The translations under genes and the position numbers were made by a program. The notes beneath the pieces were generated by a model. The model had not been told where the DNA came from. It searched no databases and worked only from the letters and a program-made list of their open reading frames with translations. From Flavobacterium sp. (GTDB lineage: Bacteria > Bacteroidota > Bacteroidia > Flavobacteriales > Flavobacteriaceae), in the NCBI RefSeq assembly GCF_031411595.1, contig NZ_JANOBI010000023.1:304-64303 (forward strand): a stretch of 64,000 nucleotides of DNA, written 5' to 3'. How positions within the stretch are numbered: position 1 is the first letter of the stretch; every line of letters starts with the position of its first letter. Positions 13,734 through 53,522 of the stretch are shown here, piece after piece.

Positions 13734-15073
13734 TGAAAAGAATTTTAATTAAAAATGCCAAAATAGTCAATGAAGGACAAGTCTTTGAAGGCGATGTTTT
13801 AATTGAAGACGAATACATTGTTGACATCGCTGAAAGCATCAGCGCCAAGTCGACCAATACTACTATCATTGATGCCGAAGGAAATTTCCTGATTCCCGGA
13901 ATGATCGACGATCAAGTGCATTTCAGAGAACCAGGCCTCACGAACAAAGGCGATATCGCTTCCGAATCGAGAGCTGCTATTGCCGGCGGAATCACTTCTT
14001 TTATTGAACAACCCAACACGATCCCCAACGCGGTAACACAAAAAATTCTCGAAGAAAAATATCAAATCGCTGCACAAAATTCGTATGCCAACTATTCCTT
14101 TATGATGGGCGCAACGAATGACAATTTAGAAGAAGTTTTGAAAACCAATCCTAAAAATGTAGCCGGAATTAAAATCTTTTTGGGTTCGTCAACGGGCAAT
14201 ATGCTCGTTGATAATGAAGCGGTTTTAGAAAAAATATTTGCATCAACACCAATGCTCATTGCGGTTCATTGCGAAGATGAGCAAACCATCAAAAATAATC
14301 TTGAAGAATATATTGCTGAGTATGGCGACGATGTTCCGGTAACGGCGCATCATTTAATCAGGAGCGAAGAAGCGTGTTATTTATCATCTTCCAAAGCGAT
14401 TGCTTTAGCTAAAAAAACGGGTGCTCGATTGCATGTTTTTCATTTGTCGACCGCTAAAGAAATGGCTTTATTCACCAATAAAATTCCATTACAAGACAAG
14501 AAAATCACGGCTGAAGTTTGCATTCATCATTTGTGGTTTACCAATGAAGATTATGCCGCCAAAGGCAATTTCATCAAATGGAATCCAGCTGTAAAAACTG
14601 CCAATGATCGCGCAGCACTTTGGGAAGCTTTGCTCGACGACCGTATAGATGTCATAGCGACCGATCACGCGCCACATACATTAGAAGAAAAAAAACAATC
14701 CTACTTGAAAGCTCCATCGGGCGGACCATTAGTGCAACATGCTTTGGTTGCGATGTTTGAAGCCTACCATCAAGGGAAAATTGCTATCGAAAAAATCGTA
14801 GAAAAAACGGCACATAATCCCGCAATTGTTTTCAAAATAGAAAAAAGAGGATTCATCAAAAAAGGCTATTATGCCGATTTGGTCATTATAAATGCAGGTT
14901 TGCCTTGGAGCGTTAAAAAAGAAAACATCTTATACAAATGTGGTTGGTCGCCATTTGAAGGATTTACGTTTACTTCAAGAATTACCCATACTTTTGTGAA
15001 CGGACAATTGGTGTATCACAATTTCAAAGTCAAAGAAATCCGTTGTGGAAAACGCTTGTTGTTTGACCGATAA
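13733..15073 (+). CDS. pyrC: Dihydroorotase
   Basis: 446 aa. PGMIDDQVHFREPG metal-binding motif. TAATG stop/start overlap with the upstream gene. Confidence 0.85.
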   Translation: MKRILIKNAKIVNEGQVFEGDVLIEDEYIVDIAESISAKSTNTTIIDAEGNFLIPGMIDDQVHFREPGLTNKGDIASESRAAIAGGITSFIEQPNTIPNAVTQKILEEKYQIAAQNSYANYSFMMGATNDNLEEVLKTNPKNVAGIKIFLGSSTGNMLVDNEAVLEKIFASTPMLIAVHCEDEQTIKNNLEEYIAEYGDDVPVTAHHLIRSEEACYLSSSKAIALAKKTGARLHVFHLSTAKEMALFTNKIPLQDKKITAEVCIHHLWFTNEDYAAKGNFIKWNPAVKTANDRAALWEALLDDRIDVIATDHAPHTLEEKKQSYLKAPSGGPLVQHALVAMFEAYHQGKIAIEKIVEKTAHNPAIVFKIEKRGFIKKGYYADLVIINAGLPWSVKKENILYKCGWSPFEGFTFTSRITHTFVNGQLVYHNFKVKEIRCGKRLLFDR

Positions 15074-15176
15074 AATAGAGCTATGAAATCGCCACTAACA
15101 AAAGTTTGTGCCAACAAACACCGATAAATAAAAAGGCGATACCATATATGACCGCTAATAAATAAATTCTACATAT

Positions 15177-15572
15177 ATGAAAAAATATTTATGCATAATC
15201 TGCCTTGTGCTTTTTTTGTCAAGTTGTAATCATACAACCATCGAAAAACCGAACAACCTCATTGATGAAGAGGTGATGACGGATATTCTTTATGACTTGT
15301 CGATTATGGATGCGATTAAATCTCAAAGCCCTTATGACGCCAAAAATCAATCGATAAATCCTAAAGAATACATCTTTAAAAAATATAAAATTGACAGTTT
15401 GCAATTCACGGAAAGCAATCGCTATTATGTTTCGCAAATCGAACAATACAAGAAAATGTACGACAAAGTAGCCGAGCGCATCGAAAAAGAAAAAGCAACT
15501 GCTGAAGCGTCAGAAACAAAAAAAATCCCAGCATCGAGCATCCCAACTGCTGAAGCAGGACAAGTGCGATAA
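15177..15572 (+). CDS. DUF4296-like lipoprotein
   Basis: 131 aa. Lipobox LFLSSC. Usual position after pyrC in Flavobacteriia. Confidence 0.6.
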   Translation: MKKYLCIICLVLFLSSCNHTTIEKPNNLIDEEVMTDILYDLSIMDAIKSQSPYDAKNQSINPKEYIFKKYKIDSLQFTESNRYYVSQIEQYKKMYDKVAERIEKEKATAEASETKKIPASSIPTAEAGQVR

Positions 15573-15573
15573 G

Positions 15574-16578
15574 TTACTTTTGTTTGGGATAATATTTTGC
15601 GATTTCAATAATACTGGACTCAATATTCTGAAACTGAAAACCCAACTCCGACTTTATTTTTTCACTCGAATACCAATCGGTTTGATGTAAAGAACGCGCC
15701 ATCGATTGACTCAAAATTCTTTTCTTATTAAATAGCATCGACAGCAATCCATCAATTCGCCAATAGATTTCTGTCATCCAAGGTCTTGCGTAAAGATTTG
15801 GTATTTTTACTTTCAAAGCCAGTGCGATGGTTTTTACTATTTTTTCGTAGGAAGCATTCTCAGCCACAACAATAAATCGCGCACCGCTCGTTTGATTTTC
15901 CATGCATTGAATCATGCTTTTTACTACATCGGTTACACACACAAATCCAGTTGAACCTTTGGTAAAAAACGACAATCCTTGTGCCACTTGCGTGAATAAC
16001 AATCCGCTGCCGGTCTTCCAAAAACCGGAACCAAGTATGACTCCGGGATTGACGATGGTTACCGATAAACCTTCTTGTTGTCCGCGCCAAACTTCCATTT
16101 CTGCACCGTATTTTGAAATGGCGTAATCGCTATGGGTTGCTTCGGGATTCCATTCGGTTGCTTCGGTGATGGTATCTTCGAATTCTTTCAAATCGCCTAA
16201 AGCTGCAATCGAACTTACATAACACAGCTTTTTAACTTTATAATTTAAACAGAAATTAACTATGTTGGCGGTGCCTTCAATATTGGTTTTCCGCAATAGT
16301 TTTTCATCGTTTGGATTGAATGAAATCAATGACGCACAATGATAAACATAATCGATGTTTTGAAACACATGCTCTAGCGAAGGCACATCGATAATGTCGG
16401 CTTGAATCCATTCGATATGATCCAATAAATCAACTTTGTTATAACTGTGAAATAATGATTTTGTTTTCTCAAGAGTGGCTGCATTGCGATACAACGCACG
16501 GACTTTTTGATTGTCTTTCAACAACTGCAATAGTAAATGCGATCCGACCAAACCTGTGGCTCCTGTGACTAGTATCAT
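15574..16578 (-). CDS. NAD-dependent epimerase/dehydratase family protein
   Basis: 334 aa. N-terminal Rossmann motif VTGATGLVGSHL. Confidence 0.85.
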   Translation of the reverse strand: MILVTGATGLVGSHLLLQLLKDNQKVRALYRNAATLEKTKSLFHSYNKVDLLDHIEWIQADIIDVPSLEHVFQNIDYVYHCASLISFNPNDEKLLRKTNIEGTANIVNFCLNYKVKKLCYVSSIAALGDLKEFEDTITEATEWNPEATHSDYAISKYGAEMEVWRGQQEGLSVTIVNPGVILGSGFWKTGSGLLFTQVAQGLSFFTKGSTGFVCVTDVVKSMIQCMENQTSGARFIVVAENASYEKIVKTIALALKVKIPNLYARPWMTEIYWRIDGLLSMLFNKKRILSQSMARSLHQTDWYSSEKIKSELGFQFQNIESSIIEIAKYYPKQK

Positions 16579-39477: not shown

Positions 39478-39633
39478 CAGTTTAATTTGAAAAATACTAA
39501 TGCTAAGGTTGTTTTTTAAAAAAGAAAAATCAAATAAAAATTTGAAGCAAACTGTTAAACTATTTTTTTTTCAAATTTTAATTAGAAAATATGTTTTAAA
39601 AAGCTATTTTTGTTTCTCAAAATTGGAAAAGTA

Positions 39634-40134
39634 ATGAAAAGATTTCTTTGTTTTATAATTATTGCTTCGACTTTAATTTCGTGTGGAGAAGACATCAGCA
39701 ATGATAATACAGGTGTTTTTAGAGGTGTTAAAGACAATGGTTTGTGGGAAGGTGGCAATGCTAAGGCTACTATTGGAGTAGGCAGTAAGTTGACTATACA
39801 GGCGGTTACTTTAACAGAAATTATGTCATTAAAAATTCCAATTCCACCGGCTACAATAGATCCAAGAAACCCAGCAACATTTGTGACTTACATTCTTGGT
39901 ACAAGCACTACGAAAAAAGCATCTTATGTTTTAACGGCTAACGATACTCAATATGTTTATGAAACAGGCATCGGAGTGGGCGATGGAGAAGTAGTGATTT
40001 CGCAATATGATGGTTCTAGTATTTCGGGAACTTTTCGATTTAATGCTTTAAATGCTGATCCGAACTCAGAAGGACAACCTTTGGTTAATTTGCAAGATGG
40101 TGTTTTTTATAAAGTACCTGTAGTTTTACCTTAA
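39634..40134 (+). CDS. Lipoprotein of unknown function
   Basis: Start moved to ATG 39634 (MKRFLCFIIIASTLISC lipobox). Confidence 0.65.
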   Translation: MKRFLCFIIIASTLISCGEDISNDNTGVFRGVKDNGLWEGGNAKATIGVGSKLTIQAVTLTEIMSLKIPIPPATIDPRNPATFVTYILGTSTTKKASYVLTANDTQYVYETGIGVGDGEVVISQYDGSSISGTFRFNALNADPNSEGQPLVNLQDGVFYKVPVVLP

Positions 40135-40234: not shown

Positions 40235-40267
40235 CAAAAAAAGCCCTTCTTTTCAGAAGAGCTTTTT
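40235..40267 (-). terminator. Orphan rho-independent terminator, probably the original tRNA-Leu terminator displaced by island insertion
   Basis: The minus strand reads AAAAAGCTCTTCT-GAAA-AGAAGGGCTTTTTTT immediately after the 13-bp copy of the tRNA-Leu 3' end (40268-40280). Confidence 0.65.
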
Positions 40268-40280
40268 GTGCGGATAATAG
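40268..40280. repeat. attL core (GTGCGGATAATAG), duplicate of the tRNA-Leu 3' end
   Basis: Exact 13-nt match to 48006-48018. A chance occurrence in 64 kb is very unlikely (about 1e-3). Confidence 0.75.
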
Positions 40281-40407
40281 TTATAGAACCTAACATTAGT
40301 CTAAATTAATTAAAATTAAAAAATCCTCATTTTATAGTACTTAACAAGCATTTATTTGAAATTTAATCATATTTAATTCTGTTGAATTAAGCTTAATTAA
40401 TAAATTT

Positions 40408-40425
40408 AGGGGAATAATAGGGGAA
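40408..40425 (+). repeat. 18-bp direct repeat AGGGGAATAATAGGGGAA (left copy), candidate integrase arm-type site
   Basis: Exact second copy at 47933-47950. Internally it is two GGGGAA hexamers 11 bp apart. Confidence 0.6.
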
Positions 40426-40439
40426 TTAAAAAATAGTTT

Positions 40440-40447
40440 TATATTTG
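40440..40447 (+). promoter_or_regulatory. Putative -7 box TATATTTG for the integrase gene
   Basis: Matches TAnnTTTG 15 nt upstream of ATG 40463. It also covers the TTG used as the start by the ORF track. Confidence 0.35.
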
Positions 40448-40462
40448 AGAAAATATGAAATC

Positions 40463-41752
40463 ATGGCTACCGGTAAATTTAGAATTAAGACAACCAACGA
40501 TTGGAATACTATCTTTTACAGATTTAAACATAGTAATCAATTTGATATAGAATGTTCAACAGGAATTCAAATTCCCAACAAACGTTGGAGCGATTCTAAG
40601 CAAGAAGTTTTATCTACAAATGATGTTAACTATACTGACATTAATTCTAGGTTGAAAGGGCTTGATTCATCGATTAGAAAGGAATATGAAAATTCAAAAC
40701 TTAAATCGGAAACAATAAATACAAGTTGGCTCAAAGAAAAGATTAATATCTATTTCAATCGGGAAACTAAAAACGTCGATGTTGACGCAATTATCTTTTT
40801 ATCAAATTACATTGTTGCATTTATTGAAGAAGCAAAAACTAAGAAAACAAGAAATAACACTCTAATTAAACACAGAACGATTCAACATTACACCACAACT
40901 TTAAATAAAATATTGGCTTTCGAAACTCATACTAGAAGTAAATTAAAACTTGTGGATTTAAGCTTAAATTTTCATACCAAATTCATTGAGTTTTTAGAAA
41001 CAGAACAAAAGCTTAACCCAAACACTATTGGCGGTTATGTTGATGATTTAAAATTGTTTTGCAATAATGCTGACAAAAAAGGAATTGCAATTTCTAAGGA
41101 ATTTAAACTTTCCGAATTTTATACACCATCAAATAAAACCAAAGACATTTATTTGAATGAAAAAGAGATTAATCAAATATATAATGCTGTCTTTGAGCAA
41201 GATTATTTAGACAATGCAAGAGATTGGTTTATTATAGGTTTAAGAACTGGATTTAGAGTTTCAGATTTTCTAAAACTTACCCCAAAAAACCTTATTGATG
41301 GTTTCATTGAAAAGCAAACTTTAAAAACTGACTTTCCGGTAATTATCCCAATTCACGATCAAGTGAAAGCTATATTAGAAAAAAGGAATGGAGATTTTCC
41401 TAGAAAAATCAGCGACCAAAAGTTTAATGACTATATCAAAATTATTTGCAAAGAAATAGAACTGAATGAAATGGTAGATGGTGCTAAAATTGCACCGATT
41501 AAGTTAAAAGAGAATGGGAAGGAGGTAATACATCGTAAAAAGTTTGACAAATTTCCTAAACACGAATTGGTTACTTCTCATATTTGTAGACGATCATTTG
41601 CTACAAATTTATATGGTAAAATAGATACTTTAACAATAATGAAAATTACTGGTCATAAAACAGAAAGTCAATTTTTGGCTTATATAAAAATTACTCCTAG
41701 AGAGTATGCGGAGAAGTTAAAAACTTATTGGAAGAATGCCCAAATTGCATGA
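40463..41752 (+). CDS. Tyrosine-type site-specific integrase (Bacteroidota phage-integrase family with N-terminal arm-binding domain)
   Basis: Start moved to ATG 40463 (MATGKFRIKTT...). Catalytic residues visible in GLRTGFRVSD (R), SHICRRSFAT (HxxR) and GHKTESQFLAYI (H...Y). Confidence 0.9.
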   Translation: MATGKFRIKTTNDWNTIFYRFKHSNQFDIECSTGIQIPNKRWSDSKQEVLSTNDVNYTDINSRLKGLDSSIRKEYENSKLKSETINTSWLKEKINIYFNRETKNVDVDAIIFLSNYIVAFIEEAKTKKTRNNTLIKHRTIQHYTTTLNKILAFETHTRSKLKLVDLSLNFHTKFIEFLETEQKLNPNTIGGYVDDLKLFCNNADKKGIAISKEFKLSEFYTPSNKTKDIYLNEKEINQIYNAVFEQDYLDNARDWFIIGLRTGFRVSDFLKLTPKNLIDGFIEKQTLKTDFPVIIPIHDQVKAILEKRNGDFPRKISDQKFNDYIKIICKEIELNEMVDGAKIAPIKLKENGKEVIHRKKFDKFPKHELVTSHICRRSFATNLYGKIDTLTIMKITGHKTESQFLAYIKITPREYAEKLKTYWKNAQIA

Positions 41753-41831
41753 AATTGACTATCAGAAACCTAAAAAACAAAGGTTTTACAAATAAAATGT
41801 TTAAAATAGAACAGTAATTAAAATGAAAAAT

Positions 41832-44800
41832 CTACGCTAGTATTTGCTCAACCTTACTTAATGCTTCTCTAAAATTTAATGCTTTAGATTTTGAATTAAC
41901 ATAACCATCTGTTGCATCATCAATTAATTTATTGATATAAAATATACCGGTATCCGATTTGGCAGTTTCCAATTTTGCTTTTATCTCTATTAATTTCGCA
42001 AAAGTTTTTTTATAGCCTTCAGTAGATTTTGAAAGATTTGAAACATATGTTGTAAGGAATGAGCTAAGTCCACTAAAACCAATATGACCCCTATCTTCAA
42101 GATAAATTATTTTAAACAGTTTTTCTAAAATATTATAGTCCGCAATAGTGTTGTAATGTGTATATGAGTTTTCTTTTAAGGATGGTATTGATTTTTGATT
42201 AAGAAATGAAAATAAATATTTTAAAGCATTCAAAGAATTTAGTTCGAACAAAATCGCAAGTGCATTGGAATAATAATAATTTTTTTCTGGGTCAATTTCC
42301 GCTTCTAGAAATTCTATTGCTTTTTTAATACAGAATTCGGGTTCTAGTTTAAAATCCATCATTATTTTTAAAGCAGACCAGCAGTGATGAGATTTAGCAT
42401 CTACACAGCAATCTTTCAACAAATAAATATCATTTGTTAATTGATAAAGTTGTTCAAGTTTCTTGTCAATATTAAAACTATGACTAGCACTAAACAGATA
42501 CTGCCTAATTTTATCGAATGTTGCAACAAGGTTATTATCTAACGCATATTGAATATGTTTTGATAAAGTAATATAGGTTAAATCCCGGTTCAATAAGTTA
42601 TAAATTATTCTTTCATCAAACTGTTTTTTATCACTTATTCTTTTCGAAAGTTTTTGAAAGTTTTTATCTTCATCACTCGACTTCTCCACATCAAAAAACT
42701 CCATCGAGTTTAGATAAAATTCCTGAGACAATTCGAAATTTAATTTATGCATAAAGAACAGTACCAACTTCAATTTTTCATAATCTTCAAGTATGACGAA
42801 ATGATTACCTTTAGATTGCATTATTTTATCAAATCTGATTTTTTGAGAAACTTTCGTACACCATAACTGTATAAATTCCTTTTGATTCTCTCTAACCACA
42901 AATCTATCTCCCGAATTTTTTAAGCCCTCAACTTGTGATTTAATTTTAGAGATGATTACTAATGGGTTTTTCAATATTTTCTTAACTTCATTGTAGTCTA
43001 AAGAATCCTTTATATCATAAATTATCCTGCTAAGAACTGTATAAGACATGTCGATTGTACTCCCATGTCCATTGTTGTCGTACCACTTCATATCGATGGT
43101 TCTGATTTTCTTTTCATCAATCAGTTCGCCATTTTCATCAAATATTTTTTTAATTTTTGACAACAATTTTCTTTTATTAAAAAGCAAGTCGAAATTTTCT
43201 TGTGCTTTATTATCACTTTTAGCTTTGACCACCGCAAATTCTTTTTCAAATAAGAATTGATGGTTAAAGGTAAAGCCTGCCTCAATCATAGTGTTATTAA
43301 ATTTACCAGCCAACTCCCGATTACCATGATTGGCAATAACATTTCTGTAAAAATCCAAATCCTTACTTTCGATTGAACCGTCTTTGAAATTTTCAATAAC
43401 AATATCAATGGTTTTTTCATTTGTAATCGATGCAAGGAAATAGCCGACGTTATTAGACGTAAAGTTTTTAATTAAATATTGAAACGCAGCAATTTGAGAT
43501 TCTGGTTTACTTTTTAAAATCAATGTCCGTAGATAATTTTCCCGTAGATGGTATTTTGTTTTATCTTCAAAAGAAGATAATAAATCTACCAAAAAGCCTT
43601 CTTCAGAATTATCAAAATGCAAACACTTCTCTATTATTTCTTCTGCAAATTTGTTGTCACTAAAGTTATTTGTGTTTTCATCAAAATAGTACTTCGCAAA
43701 TTCAATAAAATGTGCAGAAGATTTGAATCTTATGATTATTTGCTCGAGAGTCCAACTGTTTCCTCTCATCACATCATCTACTATATCTCTTGGTATAATT
43801 TTTTTATCACGTAAAAATTCATCTTTGACATACCAAAAGAAATCATCAATGGGTTCGTGTTTTTCAATTAAAGAAAGTAATGCTTTATTAATTTGTTTAC
43901 TGGTTTCTTTTTTGAATAGCTCAAATATTTTTTCTAAATACTTGTTGTCGCTTTCGCAAAGTTTTTGATCGTATATAAAATCTAGAATATGCGATTTTAT
44001 ATCTTCTGTTGTACTTTTTAACAACCCAAATAAATCATTTTTTAATTTTTCCTTTTTGGAAGTCGGAATAGTAAAATGGCCAAGCAAATCTAAAGCAGAA
44101 ATTCTTACGCGAAAATGACTTGTATTATCATTAATTATTGTGTTTAAATAATCGAAATTTTCTTCGCAATTGCCAAATTCAGCAATTTCCTTTACGCTTG
44201 AAACTTTACTATTATTAATCCAATAGGTCTTTTCAATGCATTCTGATTGGAAATATCCCTGAAAAACTTTTACCCTAAAATTGCTAATCCTGTTTTTGTC
44301 TGCTTTAAAGAGGAGTTCCGGCTGATTGTCAATGAACCATTGAACCAAAGAATCATACTTTGCATCACTCAAAATATTAATTAAAAAGGTAACTGTATTG
44401 AATAGAGAAGGGTGCGTTTTATCAGTCCCATCGATGAGGATAAATTTTTTTATTTCTTCAAAATCAAGACTAGATATTAATTCCGCAGCAAAATACTCTT
44501 GAATATTTCTATGCTCAAAAAAATAGTTTTCCAGACCCGGCTTTTTATCTATTAAGGGATTCTTTTTAAATTCATTAAAGTCACTTGTGTTGTCTTTAAT
44601 CGAACAAAATAAATTGTCTTCCGTTATTATATTGCTTTTCATTAACTCATTAATAAGGGAAATTTTTTTGGAGAATTTTTTTATTAATGGAGTATTCAAC
44701 TCAACTTTTTTCAGCTTATCATTTTTATCATGCGTCAATCTTGTGTTGATGTATGTTTCCCAAAGCTCAAAAGTATTAAGTGGTGTTTTTTTATATTGGT

Positions 44801-45995
44801 TAATATAATTTGCTAATATCTCAACCTGAAATGGAGTTTTTAAAAAATCATAAAGCATTTCATTAAAGCTAAGACTGTCAATTATAGACCCGCATTTATA
44901 TGTCAATAATTTTAAACTTTTATAACGAGACAAATCTTTTAAATAATATTTTTTAAATCCTTTGATATCCTTGACAATACTTTCATAAACATTAGTCCTG
45001 CAACTTATTATGCATTTATATTTATCAGAATTATCTTCTTTGCTTAAAAAAACGACCAACTTAGATTTAAAATACTCAATATCTGCTATCTCATCGATAC
45101 CATCAAGTATTAGTAATACATTGCTTAACTCATCGATTTGGGGTGGCAAATAATCTTCTATTGTATCTGTATTTGTAAAATCCCTCAAGTTTCTAAATAT
45201 TGGAACAGAGCCTTGAACTTCTCCTGTTTTCCAATTTTTTAAAGCAAATGTCATGAGTTCTGTCGTTTTTCCTGTGCCGGGATTACCCAAGAGAAATATT
45301 TTACTTTCTTTTTCAAGAATTTTAATAAGCTCATTTGCCCTTTTATCTTCATCCCATAAGAAAGTATATCCGTCTGTTTTATCTTCTGAGAATTCTCTTT
45401 CGATTAAGTTGTCAGTTAACTTAATATCCCCAAGATAATTCGACTTGTCCTTCTCGGATATTAAAACTTTTTTAAATGGTTTTCTGGATAAAATTATACT
45501 CTTAAACCGCTCTATTTCTTTTTCCTCATCAACAGCAAAATCTACATCTTTTCCATATAGTTGTTTATAAAAGGAGTTGTTTAAAGCAAATAGTTCTTTG
45601 ATACCATTTGACAGGTCTAATTGGTAATAACTGAATTTAAATTTTTCGCTTAATGTTGGAGATAATTTCTCTGAATTATCATCATTTGAAAAATTAGATC
45701 TAGGGTTGATGGCTATAAATAAATCATTTCTATCCAACGTATAATTTGACTCTAAGTTTAAGCCCTTTTTTAATATGTTACCAATCGCCACATCAGACTT
45801 ATAATTTTTACATTCTATAAAAATTCTACTCTCATTGTAATCTTTAGAAATCATTATTAAGATATCAAATCCATTTTGATTTCCAGATTTCATAGGTAGT
45901 GTTTGTGTAACGGTAAAGCCAATTTTTTCAAATAACCAGACGAAAAATTCTTGGGTAATTATTTCGAAACTACTTCCTATTTGCTGACTTGTCAT
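41832..45995 (-). CDS. NLR-like STAND protein: N-terminal PD-(D/E)xK (Mrr-like) nuclease, NACHT NTPase and ~850-aa helical C-terminal region
   Basis: GFD(43)...IE(61)CK(63) nuclease motif. Walker A GNPGTGKTT (237-245), Walker B LLILDGIDE (294-302), CIISCRTN, and the NACHT winged-helix signature FFEHRNIQEYFAAE. Confidence 0.8.
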   Translation of the reverse strand: MTSQQIGSSFEIITQEFFVWLFEKIGFTVTQTLPMKSGNQNGFDILIMISKDYNESRIFIECKNYKSDVAIGNILKKGLNLESNYTLDRNDLFIAINPRSNFSNDDNSEKLSPTLSEKFKFSYYQLDLSNGIKELFALNNSFYKQLYGKDVDFAVDEEKEIERFKSIILSRKPFKKVLISEKDKSNYLGDIKLTDNLIEREFSEDKTDGYTFLWDEDKRANELIKILEKESKIFLLGNPGTGKTTELMTFALKNWKTGEVQGSVPIFRNLRDFTNTDTIEDYLPPQIDELSNVLLILDGIDEIADIEYFKSKLVVFLSKEDNSDKYKCIISCRTNVYESIVKDIKGFKKYYLKDLSRYKSLKLLTYKCGSIIDSLSFNEMLYDFLKTPFQVEILANYINQYKKTPLNTFELWETYINTRLTHDKNDKLKKVELNTPLIKKFSKKISLINELMKSNIITEDNLFCSIKDNTSDFNEFKKNPLIDKKPGLENYFFEHRNIQEYFAAELISSLDFEEIKKFILIDGTDKTHPSLFNTVTFLINILSDAKYDSLVQWFIDNQPELLFKADKNRISNFRVKVFQGYFQSECIEKTYWINNSKVSSVKEIAEFGNCEENFDYLNTIINDNTSHFRVRISALDLLGHFTIPTSKKEKLKNDLFGLLKSTTEDIKSHILDFIYDQKLCESDNKYLEKIFELFKKETSKQINKALLSLIEKHEPIDDFFWYVKDEFLRDKKIIPRDIVDDVMRGNSWTLEQIIIRFKSSAHFIEFAKYYFDENTNNFSDNKFAEEIIEKCLHFDNSEEGFLVDLLSSFEDKTKYHLRENYLRTLILKSKPESQIAAFQYLIKNFTSNNVGYFLASITNEKTIDIVIENFKDGSIESKDLDFYRNVIANHGNRELAGKFNNTMIEAGFTFNHQFLFEKEFAVVKAKSDNKAQENFDLLFNKRKLLSKIKKIFDENGELIDEKKIRTIDMKWYDNNGHGSTIDMSYTVLSRIIYDIKDSLDYNEVKKILKNPLVIISKIKSQVEGLKNSGDRFVVRENQKEFIQLWCTKVSQKIRFDKIMQSKGNHFVILEDYEKLKLVLFFMHKLNFELSQEFYLNSMEFFDVEKSSDEDKNFQKLSKRISDKKQFDERIIYNLLNRDLTYITLSKHIQYALDNNLVATFDKIRQYLFSASHSFNIDKKLEQLYQLTNDIYLLKDCCVDAKSHHCWSALKIMMDFKLEPEFCIKKAIEFLEAEIDPEKNYYYSNALAILFELNSLNALKYLFSFLNQKSIPSLKENSYTHYNTIADYNILEKLFKIIYLEDRGHIGFSGLSSFLTTYVSNLSKSTEGYKKTFAKLIEIKAKLETAKSDTGIFYINKLIDDATDGYVNSKSKALNFREALSKVEQILA

Positions 45996-46015
45996 GGGAT
46001 ATAAGTGTTGTTTAT

Positions 46016-46023
46016 CAAATGTA
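46016..46023 (-). promoter_or_regulatory. Putative -7 box TACATTTG for the NLR-like gene
   Basis: Matches TAnnTTTG on the minus strand 20 nt upstream of ATG 45995. Confidence 0.3.
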
Positions 46024-46492
46024 ACTTTTAATACAATCGATTTATATTTTAATCACAAAAAATATGTGGGTGTCATTGGTATACCTCGTTTTTTAACAAC
46101 CAATCATGAACCTAATTGAATTGTTTCAAGGATAATTGTTTCATGTCACACCATGAATAAAAAGATCTTATAAAATTTGACTAAATCAAAAAGTGCATTT
46201 CTCATGTTACACATTAAATAAAACAATCGTTGGAAATTGCATCAAATAAGGATTTGATTAGGATTCTCTATGGTTGAATGGTGATGTATTCCTATATGGG
46301 GAATTGACACGGCTGAAATCCTAAGTCGTAAAACTTTTTTTAAATATTAAATAATATGAAAAAGTAAAAATTTTCATGTCCGAAAAGTATCATCATGAAT
46401 AAATAATTTGCCCACGTAAATATTTTATAACCAAATGAAAATATGTTGATTTTTTTCTAAAACCAACATATTTATATATAAACATAAATACT

Positions 46493-46684
46493 ATGAAAAA
46501 TAATACAAAACAAAAAAGACTAACTATGAAAACGACTAGAATTTTAAAGACGGTAATTATTCTTATAATTATAATTTATCATTATCAAAATCATGATTTT
46601 GAATCAATTGTTAAAAGTCTATTTTTCTTAATAGACGAAATTAAAATTCCAAACAAAGAAAAGGAAGAAGACAACGACAAATAA
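46493..46684 (+). CDS. Hypothetical 63-aa single-TM peptide
   Basis: ATG start, one hydrophobic segment (ILKTVIILIIIIY) and an acidic/lysine-rich tail. No homology recognisable by eye and may not be expressed. Confidence 0.3.
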   Translation: MKNNTKQKRLTMKTTRILKTVIILIIIIYHYQNHDFESIVKSLFFLIDEIKIPNKEKEEDNDK

Positions 46685-46700
46685 CATTTTCCACCTATAA

Positions 46701-47548
46701 CTTAGGTGTTTTTGTTATCATTAATTTTGAAACACTACCAGTTATCTATGATTGCTTTTAAACTTTACTATTATTAAATTTTAAGCCCAAAAATAAATCT
46801 TCAAAATACTGTGTAAAACACTAAAGCTCCTCGAAAAGCAAATCGTTTTTCTACCTAAGCGTTTCAAATGAGTTCGTAAAGTCAAATTGTTTCGCTCAAT
46901 AATATTGGTGCAATATTGAAACCGTTTATGGATAGTATTAGGAATCAAAGCAGGATAAATATTTAATCGGTCAGTATAGATATGCTTGGGTGCAGATAAA
47001 ATCAATTGGTTAACCAAAGGTTGAATATTCTCCTTTGTTTTAGCACCCAATACAAAGCCAACAATAGCCCTGCTTTTCCTTTCTATGGCATAAGTAATCC
47101 ATGCAACATTAGTTTTATTGCCGATAAATGTCCAAATCTCATCCATTTCATAAGAGCATCCATTTTGTAAAAGTGGTTTTGGCTTTAATTTTTTTCCAAT
47201 GGATATGATGCGGGTTAGAACCGTATTCTTTGATATATTCAGAATTCTGCCTATACTTCTGATGCCACAACTCTCTTTCAACAATGTGATTATTGAAGCA
47301 TTGGTAGTATGTATATAAGCTTGATACTTATAAGTAGTTTGAAATTTATTTTGGCACAGCTTACATTTATATCGCTGTACTTTTGATTGAAATCCATTTT
47401 TAACAGATGTTCCGCTACACTTAGGGCAATATACTTTTTCCATCCCCTAATTTAATACACGTAGGCAAAACAAAGCCTCTATTCAGACAATCTAATAAAA
47501 TTTAAATCTTGAAGGCATAGATTTCTATAAGAAAAAACAACACTTAGA
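46701..47548 (-). mobile_element. IS1-family insertion sequence (boundaries tentative)
   Basis: Transposase ORF 46781..47443. Only weak candidate terminal inverted repeats (CTTAGGTGTTTTTGTT at 46701 versus the reverse complement TCTAAGTGTTGTTTTTT at 47532-47548). No target-site duplication identified. Confidence 0.55.
46781..47443 (-). CDS. IS1-family transposase (fused InsA-like zinc finger/HTH plus DDE domain)
   Basis: 220 aa. N-terminal CPKCSG...YKCKLC zinc finger, an HTH-like segment, and DDE-region length typical of single-ORF IS1-family elements. Confidence 0.75.
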   Translation of the reverse strand: MEKVYCPKCSGTSVKNGFQSKVQRYKCKLCQNKFQTTYKYQAYIHTTNASIITLLKESCGIRSIGRILNISKNTVLTRIISIGKKLKPKPLLQNGCSYEMDEIWTFIGNKTNVAWITYAIERKSRAIVGFVLGAKTKENIQPLVNQLILSAPKHIYTDRLNIYPALIPNTIHKRFQYCTNIIERNNLTLRTHLKRLGRKTICFSRSFSVLHSILKIYFWA

Positions 47549-47875: not shown

Positions 47876-47932
47876 TGTCAGATTAATTATAGTTAATCTA
47901 AGTTAATGAATTCAAGAAAGGAAAAGTAAAAA

Positions 47933-47950
47933 GGGGAATAATAGGGGAAG
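47933..47950 (+). repeat. 18-bp direct repeat AGGGGAATAATAGGGGAA (right copy)
   Basis: Exact copy of 40408-40425. Confidence 0.6.
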
Positions 47951-47954
47951 ATAA

Positions 47955-48000
47955 AATTAAAAAATCTCTAAATCGCTATATTTAAACGTTTTAGAGATTT
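47955..48000 (-). terminator. Island-encoded rho-independent terminator now serving tRNA-Leu
   Basis: Perfect 10-bp stem AATCTCTAAA (47964-47973) / TTTAGAGATT (47991-48000). On the minus strand it is followed by TTTTTAATTTT. Confidence 0.65.
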
Positions 48001-48005
48001 TTAAA

Positions 48006-48018
48006 GTGCGGATAATAG
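48006..48018. repeat. attR core (GTGCGGATAATAG) within the tRNA-Leu 3' end
   Basis: Exact match to 40268-40280. Confidence 0.75.
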
Positions 48019-48088
48019 GACTCGAACCTACACGCCTTGCGGCACCAGATCCTAAGTCTGGCATGTCTACCAATTTCACCATATCCGC
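48007..48088 (-). tRNA. tRNA-Leu (anticodon UAG)
   Basis: Hand-folded. Acceptor GCGGATA/TATCCGC; anticodon stem CCAGA/TCTGG with loop CTTAGGA; long variable arm GCCGCAAGGCG; T-arm GTAGG-TTCGAGT-CCTAT; discriminator A. Confidence 0.9.
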
Positions 48089-49790: not shown

Positions 49791-52259
49791 TTAATACTTT
49801 TGCATAATCTCCATAATTTTTCGTGCAGGCTCTCTAATCTCAACCGCTTTACTGTTTAAATAACCTTCACTGTCTTTTTCTGTTAACGCTTTAATGGCGA
49901 CATAGTAAGGAGCCAAAATAGTATTAAACCCATTTTCTTCAAGAAGGGTTGCCAGCCAATTGCCATACCCTAATTTGGTAACCACAGCTCCAAAACGCCA
50001 CCAATCGTCTTGAGTATTGTTTGGCAATCGATCTTCAATTTTTTGAAAAGCATTTAGTAAATGTTCTTTTGCAGTACCTTCATTTCGTTTGTACAATTCA
50101 AATAACGATTTATTCAACCAATGTGAATCTTCAATCTCTTTATTGATGTCTTTATCCAAAGAATTAAATATATCTTCAGACTCTGTAAGCTTATTGATTT
50201 TATCTCTGTAGAGAAAAACCAAGTTATATTTTGCGTAAATATTATCCGGACTAATTTTAATGGCATTTATAAAAGCCTCCTCCGCTTTTTGATATTCTTG
50301 AAGATAATCAAGGTATAAATTCCCTAATCTATTATATAGGAAAGAATTATCTTCATTCAACTCAATGGCTTTTAAATATGCATCTTCCGATTTTTTATAG
50401 TCTTGAAAATGATCTCGATATAAATATGCTAATCCATTCCAAGGATTAGCATATTTATTATCAAACTCAATGGCTTTTAAATATGCATCTTCCGATTTTT
50501 TATAGTCTTGCAAATAACTTTGATATAGATTTCCTAAATTATACCATGGATAAACATATTTTTCATCAATCTCAATGGCTTTTAAAAATGCGGCTTCCGA
50601 TTTTTTATAATCTTGCAAATAATCTTGATAAAGAACTCCTAAATTATTCCATGAGTTAGGGTCTTCTTTATCCAGTTCTATCGCTTTTAAATACGCTTTT
50701 TCTGCTTCATCGAATTTCTTCAAATTCACGTGATATAAATACGCTAAATCAAACCATGTATCAGCATCTTTATTATTCTTTTTTAACTTGGCTAAATAGG
50801 TTTTCTCTAACTTAATAAAGTCTGTTTTTTCTTTATCAGTTTCCGGCTCTTTACTCAATCCAAATTTTTCATATACTTCAGGATTGGTTTTGGCTTCTTC
50901 TTTTAGTTCGTTATGACATGCTTCTTTGATTTGTTTTTTTAAATTTTTGTCCGTTACTGCTTCGGCTAAAGCCAATTTATAGGTTATTTGGTTTACGTTT
51001 TCACTTTTTACAGACAAGCTGTTTTTTGCCACTTCATGCAAATCATCGCCATAAAAAGTTTCTAAAAACTTAGACAAACAATACAGTTCTTTCTTTTGTC
51101 TGCGGCTGCTTCTGCGCATTAAAAACCAAATATTAAAAAAACGTTCACTAATTTGATACGCACTGCCTTTGGCTTTATAAGCGTCTAATCTTTCTATCCA
51201 TCCCAGTTCTACCAATCGTTTTAATTGTGGTGAAAGCTGTCCGTTTTCTAATTTGGTTTCGTTACGCAATTGCTCTAAATTCATTGGGTCCCAATGCAAT
51301 GCAATGGCGTCAACAATAATTTGAGATTGGTTGGACAATTCTTCAAAACGAGCTTTATATAAGGGCGTTATTTCATCTAGTAACGCTTCTAAATCGTCGT
51401 TAATTTCTTTAGAAAATCCTTTTACAATAATTTTAAAAAGCATTACAGCCGTTCTTGGATTTCCACCGGTTAATTGGTGAATCGTTTTGAGTCGACCAAT
51501 TTCGTCATGAATATTGGCTAAAACTTCTTGCGCATTCGTCAACTGGGCCAGATTGTTTAAAATGTCTAAAAGCTCTTCAAACTTTAATCTGTTTAGATGG
51601 GTTGTTTGAAAAGCATCATAAAATGGTGCTCCATAATTTATAGTATCTTCAATATCTACAGCACTGGCTCCTATTAAAATTGGCGCGTTATTTTGCATCA
51701 ACCAAGCCCGTAAAATATGTTGTTCACTTTTATCTAGTCGGTCAAAAATAAAACTCATATTATCAATTAATAATACAGGTCTTTTATTAATCTTATTAGA
51801 CATTTCAATCAAAAATTGAAAAGCTTGTCGGGCTACTTCATCATCATCTTTGCTTTTTTGAAGTTCTTTAACTTTTGAGTCAATTAAGTTTACTTCGTCT
51901 TTGCTTTTCACCAACTCTAATGCATCAGCCATCGCATCTAAGCTATTGAGCCAAAACTCTGCTAGGTTACTCAAATTGTATTGTTCTTCTGGAAAAAGTA
52001 AAGGAATGAATTTTGAATCTTTTTTTCTTAACTCAACTTCTATTCGCTTCAATAAGGTGCTTTTTCCCATGCCTCTTTGACCAATAAACAGGTAATGTTG
52101 CGGAATACTGTTGGCTTTTTCTTTTTTAATTTTATCCATTAGCAAGAGAAAATATTTTTGTCTAACTACAAATAAATTTTCCACGGTTTCATCATCCAAT
52201 CGCTGCGGATTGTACAAGCCTAATTGGCTTAATGACAGTTGTTTTATTTTTTTCATCAT
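49791..52259 (-). CDS. STAND-like P-loop ATPase with winged helix and five 35-aa TPR-like repeats (822 aa)
   Basis: Walker A GQRGMGKST (60-68), Walker B PVLLIDNMSF (about 161-170), GGNPR sensor-like motif, wHTH-like LSPQLKRLVELGWIER. Repeats W.NLG.LY.DYLQDYKKSE.A.LKAIE at aa ~495-690. Confidence 0.8.
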   Translation of the reverse strand: MMKKIKQLSLSQLGLYNPQRLDDETVENLFVVRQKYFLLLMDKIKKEKANSIPQHYLFIGQRGMGKSTLLKRIEVELRKKDSKFIPLLFPEEQYNLSNLAEFWLNSLDAMADALELVKSKDEVNLIDSKVKELQKSKDDDEVARQAFQFLIEMSNKINKRPVLLIDNMSFIFDRLDKSEQHILRAWLMQNNAPILIGASAVDIEDTINYGAPFYDAFQTTHLNRLKFEELLDILNNLAQLTNAQEVLANIHDEIGRLKTIHQLTGGNPRTAVMLFKIIVKGFSKEINDDLEALLDEITPLYKARFEELSNQSQIIVDAIALHWDPMNLEQLRNETKLENGQLSPQLKRLVELGWIERLDAYKAKGSAYQISERFFNIWFLMRRSSRRQKKELYCLSKFLETFYGDDLHEVAKNSLSVKSENVNQITYKLALAEAVTDKNLKKQIKEACHNELKEEAKTNPEVYEKFGLSKEPETDKEKTDFIKLEKTYLAKLKKNNKDADTWFDLAYLYHVNLKKFDEAEKAYLKAIELDKEDPNSWNNLGVLYQDYLQDYKKSEAAFLKAIEIDEKYVYPWYNLGNLYQSYLQDYKKSEDAYLKAIEFDNKYANPWNGLAYLYRDHFQDYKKSEDAYLKAIELNEDNSFLYNRLGNLYLDYLQEYQKAEEAFINAIKISPDNIYAKYNLVFLYRDKINKLTESEDIFNSLDKDINKEIEDSHWLNKSLFELYKRNEGTAKEHLLNAFQKIEDRLPNNTQDDWWRFGAVVTKLGYGNWLATLLEENGFNTILAPYYVAIKALTEKDSEGYLNSKAVEIREPARKIMEIMQKY

Positions 52260-53428
52260 TTTGAAAATCGGTTATACCAAAAATCTCTTAAAAGCGGCGA
52301 ACGAAAGGCGTATTTTAATTCTTCTTCGATTAAATAACCATCGTTTTGTAGCATGTATAAAAGTTTACTTAAAATTGATTCTGTTTTTTCTTCATCATTA
52401 ATCTTAGCGTTTAAAACGGTAAAAAGCATACCTCTGCTTTCTCCTTGTTTATTTATTGAAAGCCTTTTTAACAATAGACGCGCATAGATTTCCAAAACAT
52501 TATATTCATTTAAGCGTTCTTCCCAAGTATTTAAGTGTTTTTCGCTTATTAATAATGTATAAGCTTCGTCAACAGTTTTAGTTGTTATTTCCCTATCCTC
52601 AACTTGAACTAAATGATAAAATTTAAAAAATAAAATTTGAATAAAATAGGGAAGTAGCCAACCTAACTTATTCAATTTATATTCAATTACTTCTTCAGAA
52701 AGAATAATTCCCTCTGATCTCGCTAACTCTAATAACAATTCTTTTGCTTTTTCTCTTTTAAACGCACCTATTGGATAAGGATCAACATCATTAAAAGTAT
52801 AACTCAAATTATGTTGGTTGGTAAAATTGTCAATCCCAATAGAACTACAAAATATCCAGCGAATTTTTGTACCGGAAACTTGTCTAAAACTTCGTAACCA
52901 ATTCAGAAAAAATTCAGCATTCTTCTTTCCTTCTTCAGGATCATTATCTATGAAGCTACTTAATACCACTGTTAATTCGTCAACCATAATCAAGGTTTCC
53001 TTTTCATGATTTAAAAGTTTTTTTAAGTTTTCATACACATCGCTTTTAGATGATCTCCATTCCAATGTTGCTTTTGCGCCTTCATATTCAATTGATGTCT
53101 TAATACTTTCAAGAATTTTTTCTATTTTATTTGCTGATGTATTTACAACCTTAGTCCACCAACTTTGACTAGTTAATTGTTCAACAAACTTTTTAACGAA
53201 GCCTTCTTCTGATTTTACTTCTTCCAAATTTATCTCTAAAGTGTCCCATCCATTTTCTTTTGCTTCCTTCAAAACTCTTTTAGCGAGAGACGATTTCCCT
53301 ACTCTTCTTGGCGCAGAAAGTATAATGGAATTACCTTTTTTAATATGTCTCCAAACGAATTCTAATTCTTTTTCTCTTCCAAAAAAATCGTTTCCTTCAA
53401 CTGGAGAGCCTGTAATATTGTTTATCAT
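52256..53428 (-). CDS. Arch-ATPase-like (PF01637-type) AAA ATPase with C-terminal helical/wHTH-like region (~390 aa)
   Basis: Start moved to ATG 53428 (MINNITGSPVEGNDFFGREKELEF...SAPRRVGKSSL Walker A; LIMVDELT Walker B). The stop overlaps the start of the 822-aa gene (ATGA). Confidence 0.75.
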   Translation of the reverse strand: MINNITGSPVEGNDFFGREKELEFVWRHIKKGNSIILSAPRRVGKSSLAKRVLKEAKENGWDTLEINLEEVKSEEGFVKKFVEQLTSQSWWTKVVNTSANKIEKILESIKTSIEYEGAKATLEWRSSKSDVYENLKKLLNHEKETLIMVDELTVVLSSFIDNDPEEGKKNAEFFLNWLRSFRQVSGTKIRWIFCSSIGIDNFTNQHNLSYTFNDVDPYPIGAFKREKAKELLLELARSEGIILSEEVIEYKLNKLGWLLPYFIQILFFKFYHLVQVEDREITTKTVDEAYTLLISEKHLNTWEERLNEYNVLEIYARLLLKRLSINKQGESRGMLFTVLNAKINDEEKTESILSKLLYMLQNDGYLIEEELKYAFRSPLLRDFWYNRFSK

Positions 53429-53446
53429 AAACTTAATTTTAAAACA

Positions 53447-53454
53447 CAAATATA
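53447..53454 (-). promoter_or_regulatory. Putative -7 box TATATTTG for the two-ATPase operon
   Basis: Matches TAnnTTTG on the minus strand about 18 nt upstream of ATG 53428. Confidence 0.35.
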
Positions 53455-53522
53455 CATATTTAAATATATGCAAAAATGAATATTTAATTTTATAATTCAA
53501 ATGTTAAAACAAATCCTACATC

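Follow-up and report, generated by a model that had tools for sequence, protein, structure and literature searches.

The window analyzed here, a 64,000-nucleotide stretch of Flavobacterium sp. contig NZ_JANOBI010000023.1, harbored a complete NLR-like gene on the minus strand, whose 1387-amino-acid (aa) product was composed of a predicted PD-(D/E)xK (Mrr-like) nuclease head, a variable linker, a NACHT NTPase module, and a long C-terminal sensor. The gene probably encodes a stand-alone NACHT-clade STAND/NLR immune receptor of the single-gene abortive-infection type, carried on a small tRNA-Leu integrative island. The open reading frame (ORF), 4164 nucleotides (nt) in length, had exactly the coordinates given to it in an earlier reading of the letters of this DNA (hereafter the original prediction), as confirmed by the ORF list, and its product was 100% identical to a Flavobacterium sp. 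database entry named 'hypothetical / NACHT domain-containing protein'. A 4.2-kb ORF in 28%-GC DNA with about 200 homologs was far beyond chance. The gene and its inner features, as resolved with the help of AlphaFold2 (AF2) models, were as follows:

41832..45995, minus strand: complete NLR-like gene, 1387 aa (ORF list), with its stop codon at 41832-41834
45486..45995, minus strand: predicted PD-(D/E)xK (Mrr-like) nuclease head, residues 1-170 (Mrr_cat, conservation, AF2, and Foldseek)
45963-45965, minus strand: catalytic candidate E11, on alpha1 in the AF2 model
45864-45866, minus strand: catalytic candidate D44, leading into beta2 in the AF2 model
45813-45815, minus strand: catalytic candidate E61, on beta3 in the AF2 model
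45807-45809, minus strand: catalytic candidate K63, on beta3 in the AF2 model
45321..45485, minus strand: variable linker, residues 171-225, with the highest entropy (2.5 bits)
44376..45320, minus strand: NACHT NTPase module, residues 226-540 (Pfam, motifs, and Foldseek)
45261-45287, minus strand: Walker A motif GNPGTGKTT, including K243
45090-45104, minus strand: Walker B motif DGIDE (in LLILDGIDE), D298-G299-I300-D301-E302
44991-45008, minus strand: sensor-1 motif ISCRTN, including R333
44484-44519, minus strand: winged-helix motif FEHRNIQEYFAA, including H495
41835..44375, minus strand: C-terminal sensor, residues 541-1387, a predicted all-alpha HEAT-like solenoid (AF2 and Foldseek)

Domain architecture of the NLR-like protein

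The predicted nuclease head displayed the core fold and the E...D...ExK signature that define PD-(D/E)xK (Mrr_cat) enzymes: its core in the AF2 model ran alpha-beta-beta-beta-alpha-beta (H3-25, E28-34, E45-51, E54-62, H71-84, and E91-96), and G7, F10, E11, G42, F43, D44, I60, E61, C62, and K63 were invariant across 34-49 full-length homologs with identity down to 33%, so that the nuclease residues were conserved among diverged relatives. The PD-(D/E)xK pattern described originally was present, and the numbering of E61, K63, and the Walker A residue K243 was right, but the Asp was D44 (within G42-F43-D44) and not D43. The Pfam profile Mrr_cat, which had been put forward as a check, passed its cut-off of 21 bits with the isolated head (21.6 bits) but stayed below it with the whole protein (18.3 bits). 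The head also weakly matched NA-iREase1, a family of 'inactive REase' (restriction endonuclease) domains (E = 0.031); the corresponding reading of the head as an inactive adaptor was rejected, because all catalytic residues were invariant.

The NACHT NTPase module carried all four hallmarks recognized originally (GNPGTGKTT, LLILDGIDE, CIISCRTN, and FEHRNIQEYFAA), and their coordinates were checked. Across 46 sequences from all architecture classes (see below), the invariant residues were G237, G240, G242, and K243 in Walker A, D298, D301, and E302 in Walker B, R333 in sensor-1, and Q499 and E500 in the winged helix, and the residues conserved in at least 90% of sequences were G299 in Walker B and H495 in the winged helix. 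In Pfam searches, residues 220-360 gave NACHT (PF05729) at 28.4 bits versus a cut-off of 26.7 and nSTAND3 at 29.6 versus 27.2, and precomputed matches to PF05729 and PF20720 were present in most homologs. The Walker B signature D[GAS]hDE sets NACHT apart from other STAND clades (Kibby et al.), and D298-G-I-D301-E302 fitted it. The module was a NACHT-clade STAND NTPase by this signature, by the marginal Pfam NACHT match, and by a winged helix with the conserved His and the corresponding fold; the NACHT profile match anticipated originally was thus significant though barely over its cut-off, and the signature and the fold similarity to NLRC4, NOD2, and NLRP3 lent it support.

The AF2 model of residues 1-565, built from a 49-sequence alignment (pLDDT 85.8; pTM 0.80), displayed after the head a disordered linker (residues 208-219 at pLDDT <50), beyond which lay a P-loop NTPase that included helical and winged-helix subdomains. 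The top Foldseek match of this model in the PDB was EcAvs4 bound to a phage portal (8dgf; E = 4e-12), and the alignment spanned ~600 columns and therefore covered both the nuclease head and the NTPase; NLRP14, NLRC4, NOD2, and NLRP3 ranked next, with E values from 1e-10 to 1e-8. Single-sequence and profile searches of the PDB sequences gave no match for the nuclease head or the sensor, and the sole match of the family profile there was a marginal one to NLRP14 via the winged-helix motif (E = 0.011).

The C-terminal sensor was predicted to be a degenerate HEAT-like alpha-solenoid, whose resemblance to known solenoids was generic and pointed to no specific structural relative. Its AF2 model, built from a 63-sequence alignment (pLDDT 87.2; pTM 0.67), contained ~45 helices of 8-20 residues arranged in hairpins plus one small beta-hairpin, and the ~850 residues once called 'helical-looking' were indeed modeled as almost wholly alpha. 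The top 50 Foldseek matches of the sensor were all HEAT/ARM solenoids, of a generic eukaryotic kind (CRM1, karyopherins, SF3B1, FANCI, and condensin; E ~1e-4; TM 0.15-0.23), and no solved Avs or NLR sensor was found among the matches. Pfam and PDB sequence searches gave no match for this region, and hhalign among seven sensor segments detected no internal repeats (probability <=1.4%); the original descriptions of the sensor as 'unassigned' and as having 'no repeat periodicity' therefore stood at the sequence level but not at the structural one, where AF2 and Foldseek made a repeat-like HEAT-like solenoid recognizable. The Lys/Asn/Glu-richness ascribed to this region was true but not specific, with both protein halves having the same composition. 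A HEAT_2 Pfam match was present in the equivalent region of the distant relative P0235. The alignment columns of the sensor varied more than those of the NACHT module, with entropies of 2.0-2.3 versus 1.6-1.8 bits. Sensors of defense STANDs are most often of the alpha-helical repeat type (Lee et al. 2026).

Family distribution, swapped effectors, and genomic neighborhoods

A word-indexed search recovered 196 relatives, almost all from Flavobacteriaceae, and an exhaustive profile search with the sensor only, run over 1.84 billion clusters, gave 596 cluster representatives at E <= 1e-3 and 268 at E <= 1e-30; the sensor was preceded by a NACHT-sized module in every full-length profile match. The family was rare and patchy in distribution: relatives were present in about 102 of the 185,579 species-representative genomes, mostly from Flavobacteriales plus a few from Chitinophagaceae, Sphingobacterium, and Ekhidna, and other phyla gave weak full-length matches at 23-29% identity. 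Only weak, partial relatives were returned by tblastn against phage and plasmid collections, and thus the family was not phage- or plasmid-borne in those collections.

The NACHT-sensor body was found with different heads and different partner genes, giving the following architecture classes:

Class A: ~170-aa Mrr head; no co-oriented and abutting partner gene; 19 loci
Class B: ~220-aa trypsin-like head (PF13365, 65.7 bits); overlapping upstream gene for a ~345-aa metallo-beta-lactamase (MBL); loci L004 and L031
Class C: short stub; abutting gene for a ~93-aa two-transmembrane (2-TM) protein; 8 loci
Class D: no head; overlapping gene for a ~365-aa Metallophos protein; 15 loci
Class D+: no head, ~140-aa C-terminal extension; 4 loci (L037, L038, L039, and L043, from Chryseobacterium and Avrilella)
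Other class: SIR2_2 head; P0235

The head type predicted the partner gene with no exception across 49 loci. The class D+ loci had no Metallophos partner, and their conserved ~140-aa extension, for which there was no Pfam match, could be an effector or an adaptor. As an effector module of Avs2, trypsin-MBL has been validated by experiment: sensor-driven tetramerization activates the protease, which in turn cleaves and activates the MBL nuclease (10.64898/2026.08.25.746987); SIR2 and PD-(D/E)xK heads are established effectors of Avs and bNACHT proteins. This effector modularity was the strongest functional argument for an immune role, and the swapping of effectors, including the validated trypsin-MBL module, spoke for the single-gene antiviral NLR of the original prediction and points to an antiviral function. 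As a separate observation on class C, the operon at L005 6853-7999 of F. johnsoniae (a 92-aa 2-TM gene plus the NLR gene) followed a TatD_DNase gene, and still farther upstream lay RtcB, TROVE (Ro-like), and WYL genes.

The genomic neighborhoods were sampled as 131 proteins encoded up to about 4 kb away from the 19 Mrr-headed genes. Among their Pfam families, Phage_int_SAM_5 (6) and Phage_integrase (5) were the most frequent, followed by ResIII (4), DEAD (3), GajA (2, best E = 1.6e-159), PLDc_2 (2), and DrmC (2); an integrase was present near 6 of the 19 loci. Individual settings were of several kinds: (i) the closest relative P0002 (locus L001) shared its island with a 94%-identical integrase and had SMODS and S_4TM genes nearby; (ii) P0070 resided in an integrase island adjoining an MmeI-type restriction-modification (RM) gene and tRNA-Leu; and (iii) P0011 was surrounded by SMEK_N, Trypsin_2, PLD, and RHS/Tox-REase genes. 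No housekeeping operon was found among the homolog settings examined, the homologs lying beside integrases, Gabija, ResIII, and PLD genes.

The tRNA-Leu island and its closest relative

The island was 7.7 kb in length and AT-rich, and it extended between the tyrosine integrase side and the duplicated 3' end of tRNA-Leu, with the following features besides the NLR-like gene:

48006..48088, minus strand: tRNA-Leu(tag), the integration target (ARAGORN), whose 3' end at 48006-48030 was the proximal attachment (att) repeat
40268-40292, no strand: distal att repeat, 25 nt that imperfectly duplicate the tRNA-Leu 3' end (direct repeat with 13 exact nt, GTGCGGATAATAG)
40445..41752, plus strand: tyrosine integrase, 435 aa (Phage_int_SAM_5 and Phage_integrase)
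46781..47443, minus strand: IS1-family transposase ORF inside the island (DDE_Tnp_IS1, 89 bits)

The GC content rose from 0.27-0.30 between the repeats to 0.40-0.46 in the flanks, where the M20 peptidase and ribosomal-protein regions lie, and this contrast, together with the ARAGORN tRNA, the att repeat, and the integrase, bore out the AT-rich tRNA-Leu island of the original prediction. IS1 was a secondary insertion, with the NLR upstream region on one side and the tRNA on the other, and was absent from the related L001 island; the window island without IS1 was ~6.4 kb. Because the island otherwise held att repeats, the integrase, and the secondary IS1, the NLR-like gene was its only substantial cargo.

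The homology between the window and L001 spanned 40263 to 46683 and ended before IS1, and it was unevenly distributed: (i) the integrase had a synonymous divergence (dS) of 0.66; (ii) codons 1-150 of the nuclease head had 92-95% nt identity, a dS of 0.46, and 97% aa identity; (iii) nt identity dropped abruptly to about 75% at codon ~151 (linker) and was 65-70% around codons 950-1250; and (iv) the NACHT-sensor body as a whole had 65-78% nt identity, with its synonymous sites saturated (proportion of synonymous differences, pS, 0.75-0.81). Since a conserved integrase and head flank a divergent body, the simplest explanation of this single pairwise comparison would be that homologous exchange replaced the NACHT-sensor body while the island backbone was conserved, one breakpoint falling in the linker between head and NACHT module. 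The linker holding the putative breakpoint was also the most variable and the least ordered segment of the protein. L001 further contained an extra 536-aa gene (14171-15781, minus strand; faint EMARD_N match) between its NLR gene and integrase, which the window island did not have.

Several smaller features were observed in and around the island. A second direct repeat was located just inside both island ends (40408-40435 and 47932-47959; 18 exact nt, AGGGGAATAATAGGGGAA), which may serve the integrase as arm-type binding sites or belong to the true att core. Divergent from the NLR-like gene was a 63-aa ORF that encoded a hydrophobic segment (46493-46684, plus strand); its counterpart in the closest related island (L001/L002/L008) occupied the same position, shared 75% aa identity with it, and was called as a gene, and the ORF was absent from every other family locus. 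This ORF and a 90-aa ORF of the island were rejected as system components, because no counterpart of either occurred beyond the closest relative, if there was one at all. A DUF6252 lipoprotein-like gene (39610-40134, plus strand; GC content 0.30-0.35) was located just outside the distal att repeat. A second AT-rich cluster (49791-53500, minus strand; GC content 0.29-0.34) lay just past the M20 peptidase gene and was composed of (i) a gene for an 822-aa ATPase_2/AAA plus TPR protein (49791..52259) and (ii) a gene for a 414-aa AAA/STAND-like ATPase with a weak nSTAND1 match (52256..53500), the end of which overlapped the start of the 822-aa gene by 4 nt; both ATPases had only weak PADLOC matches (mad8 and PDC-S01), and this cluster may be another STAND-type conflict system beside the island.

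Proposed function and relation to known systems

As an immune receptor, the protein would rest in uninfected cells as a closed, autoinhibited, nucleotide-bound monomer. The HEAT-like solenoid would bind a phage-encoded protein or detect a phage-induced change in a host factor, which would release the NACHT module for NTP exchange or binding and for oligomerization; oligomerization would gather the Mrr-like PD-(D/E)xK heads into active dimers, and these would cut DNA indiscriminately, sacrificing the cell to stop phage replication (abortive infection). For its trigger, oligomeric state, DNA substrate, and phenotype, this scheme was modeled on EcAvs4 and bNACHT25/32. The Cap4 and Mrr heads of Avs3, Avs4, and Avs7 become active on tetramerization.

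The immune reading was carried by the domain architecture, the residue conservation, the structural likeness to EcAvs4 and NLRs, the effector modularity, and the mobile and defense context, and the greater variability of the sensor relative to the NACHT module, the rare and patchy distribution of the family, and the layout shared with the characterized bNACHT25/32 were also counted for it. The original prediction had listed what would speak against this reading, namely the lack of any NACHT or nuclease profile match, non-conserved catalytic residues, and exclusively housekeeping contexts, and none of these was encountered. Five points did weigh on the other side: (i) the NACHT and Mrr_cat Pfam scores were just marginally over their cut-offs; (ii) as the NA-iREase1 match shows, a REase-like head on a NACHT protein need not be catalytic; (iii) known defense genes were present in a minority of the homolog neighborhoods; (iv) the pairwise ratio of nonsynonymous to synonymous divergence (dN/dS) against L001 was low, at about 0.06, so that positive selection on the sensor was not directly evident, and it was uninformative for the body because dS was saturated; and (v) with no PADLOC match and EruA far under its cut-off (see below), a defense function would be transferred by architecture and not by orthology.

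An improbable alternative was a module selfish to the island, acting either by addiction (killing cells that lose the island) or by attack on competing mobile elements that target the same or a nearby integration site. It would account for the NLR-like gene being essentially the sole cargo of a ~6.4-kb island plus IS1, for integrases being the most frequent neighbors, and for the backbone (integrase and head) being kept through the apparent exchange of the body. However, no antitoxin-like partner was conserved, the 19 Mrr-headed loci having no co-oriented abutting gene and the 63-aa ORF being limited to the closest relative; 13 of these 19 loci were not beside an integrase; and a large ligand-binding solenoid with an NTP-gated switch would be needless for simple addiction. 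Defense genes, too, commonly ride on islands.

Still harder to credit was an NTP-dependent, modification- or structure-dependent type IV/Mrr-like restriction enzyme, in which the head itself would recognize and cut foreign DNA, with the NACHT module serving as a motor or clamp, the solenoid as a scaffold, and no protein trigger involved. The Mrr_cat match of the head and the presence of ResIII/DEAD helicases and RM genes near some loci agreed with such an enzyme, but the NACHT-sensor body was also paired with non-DNA effectors (trypsin protease, SIR2, and 2-TM protein) and therefore looked like a generic sensor-switch, not a DNA-recognition machine; in addition, the REase core of the head begins at residue 3, so that the N-terminal winged helix with which Mrr typically recognizes DNA is missing, and NACHT modules are oligomerization switches, not translocases. 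The slimmest chance fell to a non-immune signaling or regulatory STAND protein with the REase-like head as an inactive adaptor or DNA-binding module (cf. MalT/AfsR-type and NA-iREase), which the interspersion of defense and non-defense STAND clades (PMC13581612) and the weak NA-iREase1 match would allow but which disagreed with four catalytic positions invariant down to 33% identity, the lack of a helix-turn-helix output domain, the lethal effectors of the sister architectures, and the mobile-island setting with patchy distribution.

Within the immune-receptor reading, it is conceivable, though somewhat doubtful, that the Flavobacteriales-centered NACHT-solenoid body of ~600 clusters represents a new sensor specificity (e.g., for a Bacteroidota-phage protein) and that the islands diversify the receptor by a cassette-like swap of the body at the linker. 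If true, a Bacteroidota-specific NLR family would be added to the catalog of bacterial pattern-recognition receptors, and phage defense in Bacteroidota has received far less study than that in Proteobacteria. The interest of the family would thus lie in a sensor specificity from an under-studied phylum, in a clean swapped-effector series, and in a possible exchange of receptor bodies as cassettes: one sensor body with at least five effectors (Mrr nuclease, trypsin-MBL, SIR2, Metallophos, and small membrane protein) constitutes a natural experiment, the head/body breakpoint suggests how such receptors re-assort in nature, and the compact 7.7-kb single-cargo island would be a convenient unit for transfer and testing.

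Among named systems, PADLOC-DB v2 (including Avs1-5) gave 0 matches at E <= 1 for the NLR-like protein, and NCBIfam EruA (NF058535), for which a literature search found no paper, scored 21.7 bits versus a cut-off of 1000, over the P-loop region 219-334 only. Because there was no PADLOC match and the EruA equivalog score was not reached, profile searches did not place the protein in any named Avs (PADLOC Avs1-5) or bNACHT system; the searches suggested in the original prediction thus returned the Pfam NACHT match but no PADLOC match, and hence no named Avs/bNACHT family. Lee et al. 2026 defined 589 STAND clades, of which 198 were defense-associated, and 684 sensor clusters, and the present family likely already sits, as an unstudied one, within the clade schemes of Kibby et al. 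and Lee et al., because several of its members are in NCBI nr. It was no new kind of system, since the REase-NACHT-helical-repeat architecture has been described and validated in other lineages and nuclease-NACHT-helical-repeat receptors are already established anti-phage proteins.

The comparison with known systems, made by architecture only for bNACHT25/bNACHT32, gave the following likenesses and differences. The E. coli proteins bNACHT25 and bNACHT32 (NACHT clade 6; Kibby et al. 2022/2023) shared with the window protein the arrangement PD-(D/E)xK DNase-NACHT-helical sensor on one polypeptide and the D[GAS]hDE signature, with the nuclease Asp at D48 there versus D44 here, but they carried an 'NCH1' helical domain, while the window protein carried an ~850-aa sensor forming a family of its own of about 600 clusters; bNACHT25/32 need the nuclease Asp for defense (D48A) and degrade DNA when triggered (PMC12169576). 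EcAvs4 (AVAST type 4, PDB 8dgf) likewise had an Mrr-type head, activated by ligand-induced tetramerization, plus a STAND NTPase and an alpha-repeat C-terminal sensor; however, PADLOC and PDB profile searches gave no sequence-level similarity to it, its TPR sensor was not matched by the window sensor in Foldseek, and the window NTPase had NACHT-specific motifs. Avs2-trypsin-MBL (10.64898/2026.08.25.746987) used the same effector module as the class B paralogs, but the window protein had an Mrr head, and its NTPase and sensor were not those of Avs2 (no PADLOC match). The animal NLRs NLRC4, NOD2, NLRP3, and NLRP14 shared the NACHT fold and the D-G-h-D-E motif, and NLRP14 additionally shared, at the sequence level, the winged-helix motif F-x-H-x-x-x-Q-E-F/Y-F-A-A; these NLRs displayed a leucine-rich repeat sensor and a CARD/PYD adaptor, while the window protein displayed a predicted HEAT-like solenoid and a putative enzymatic nuclease head at the corresponding ends.

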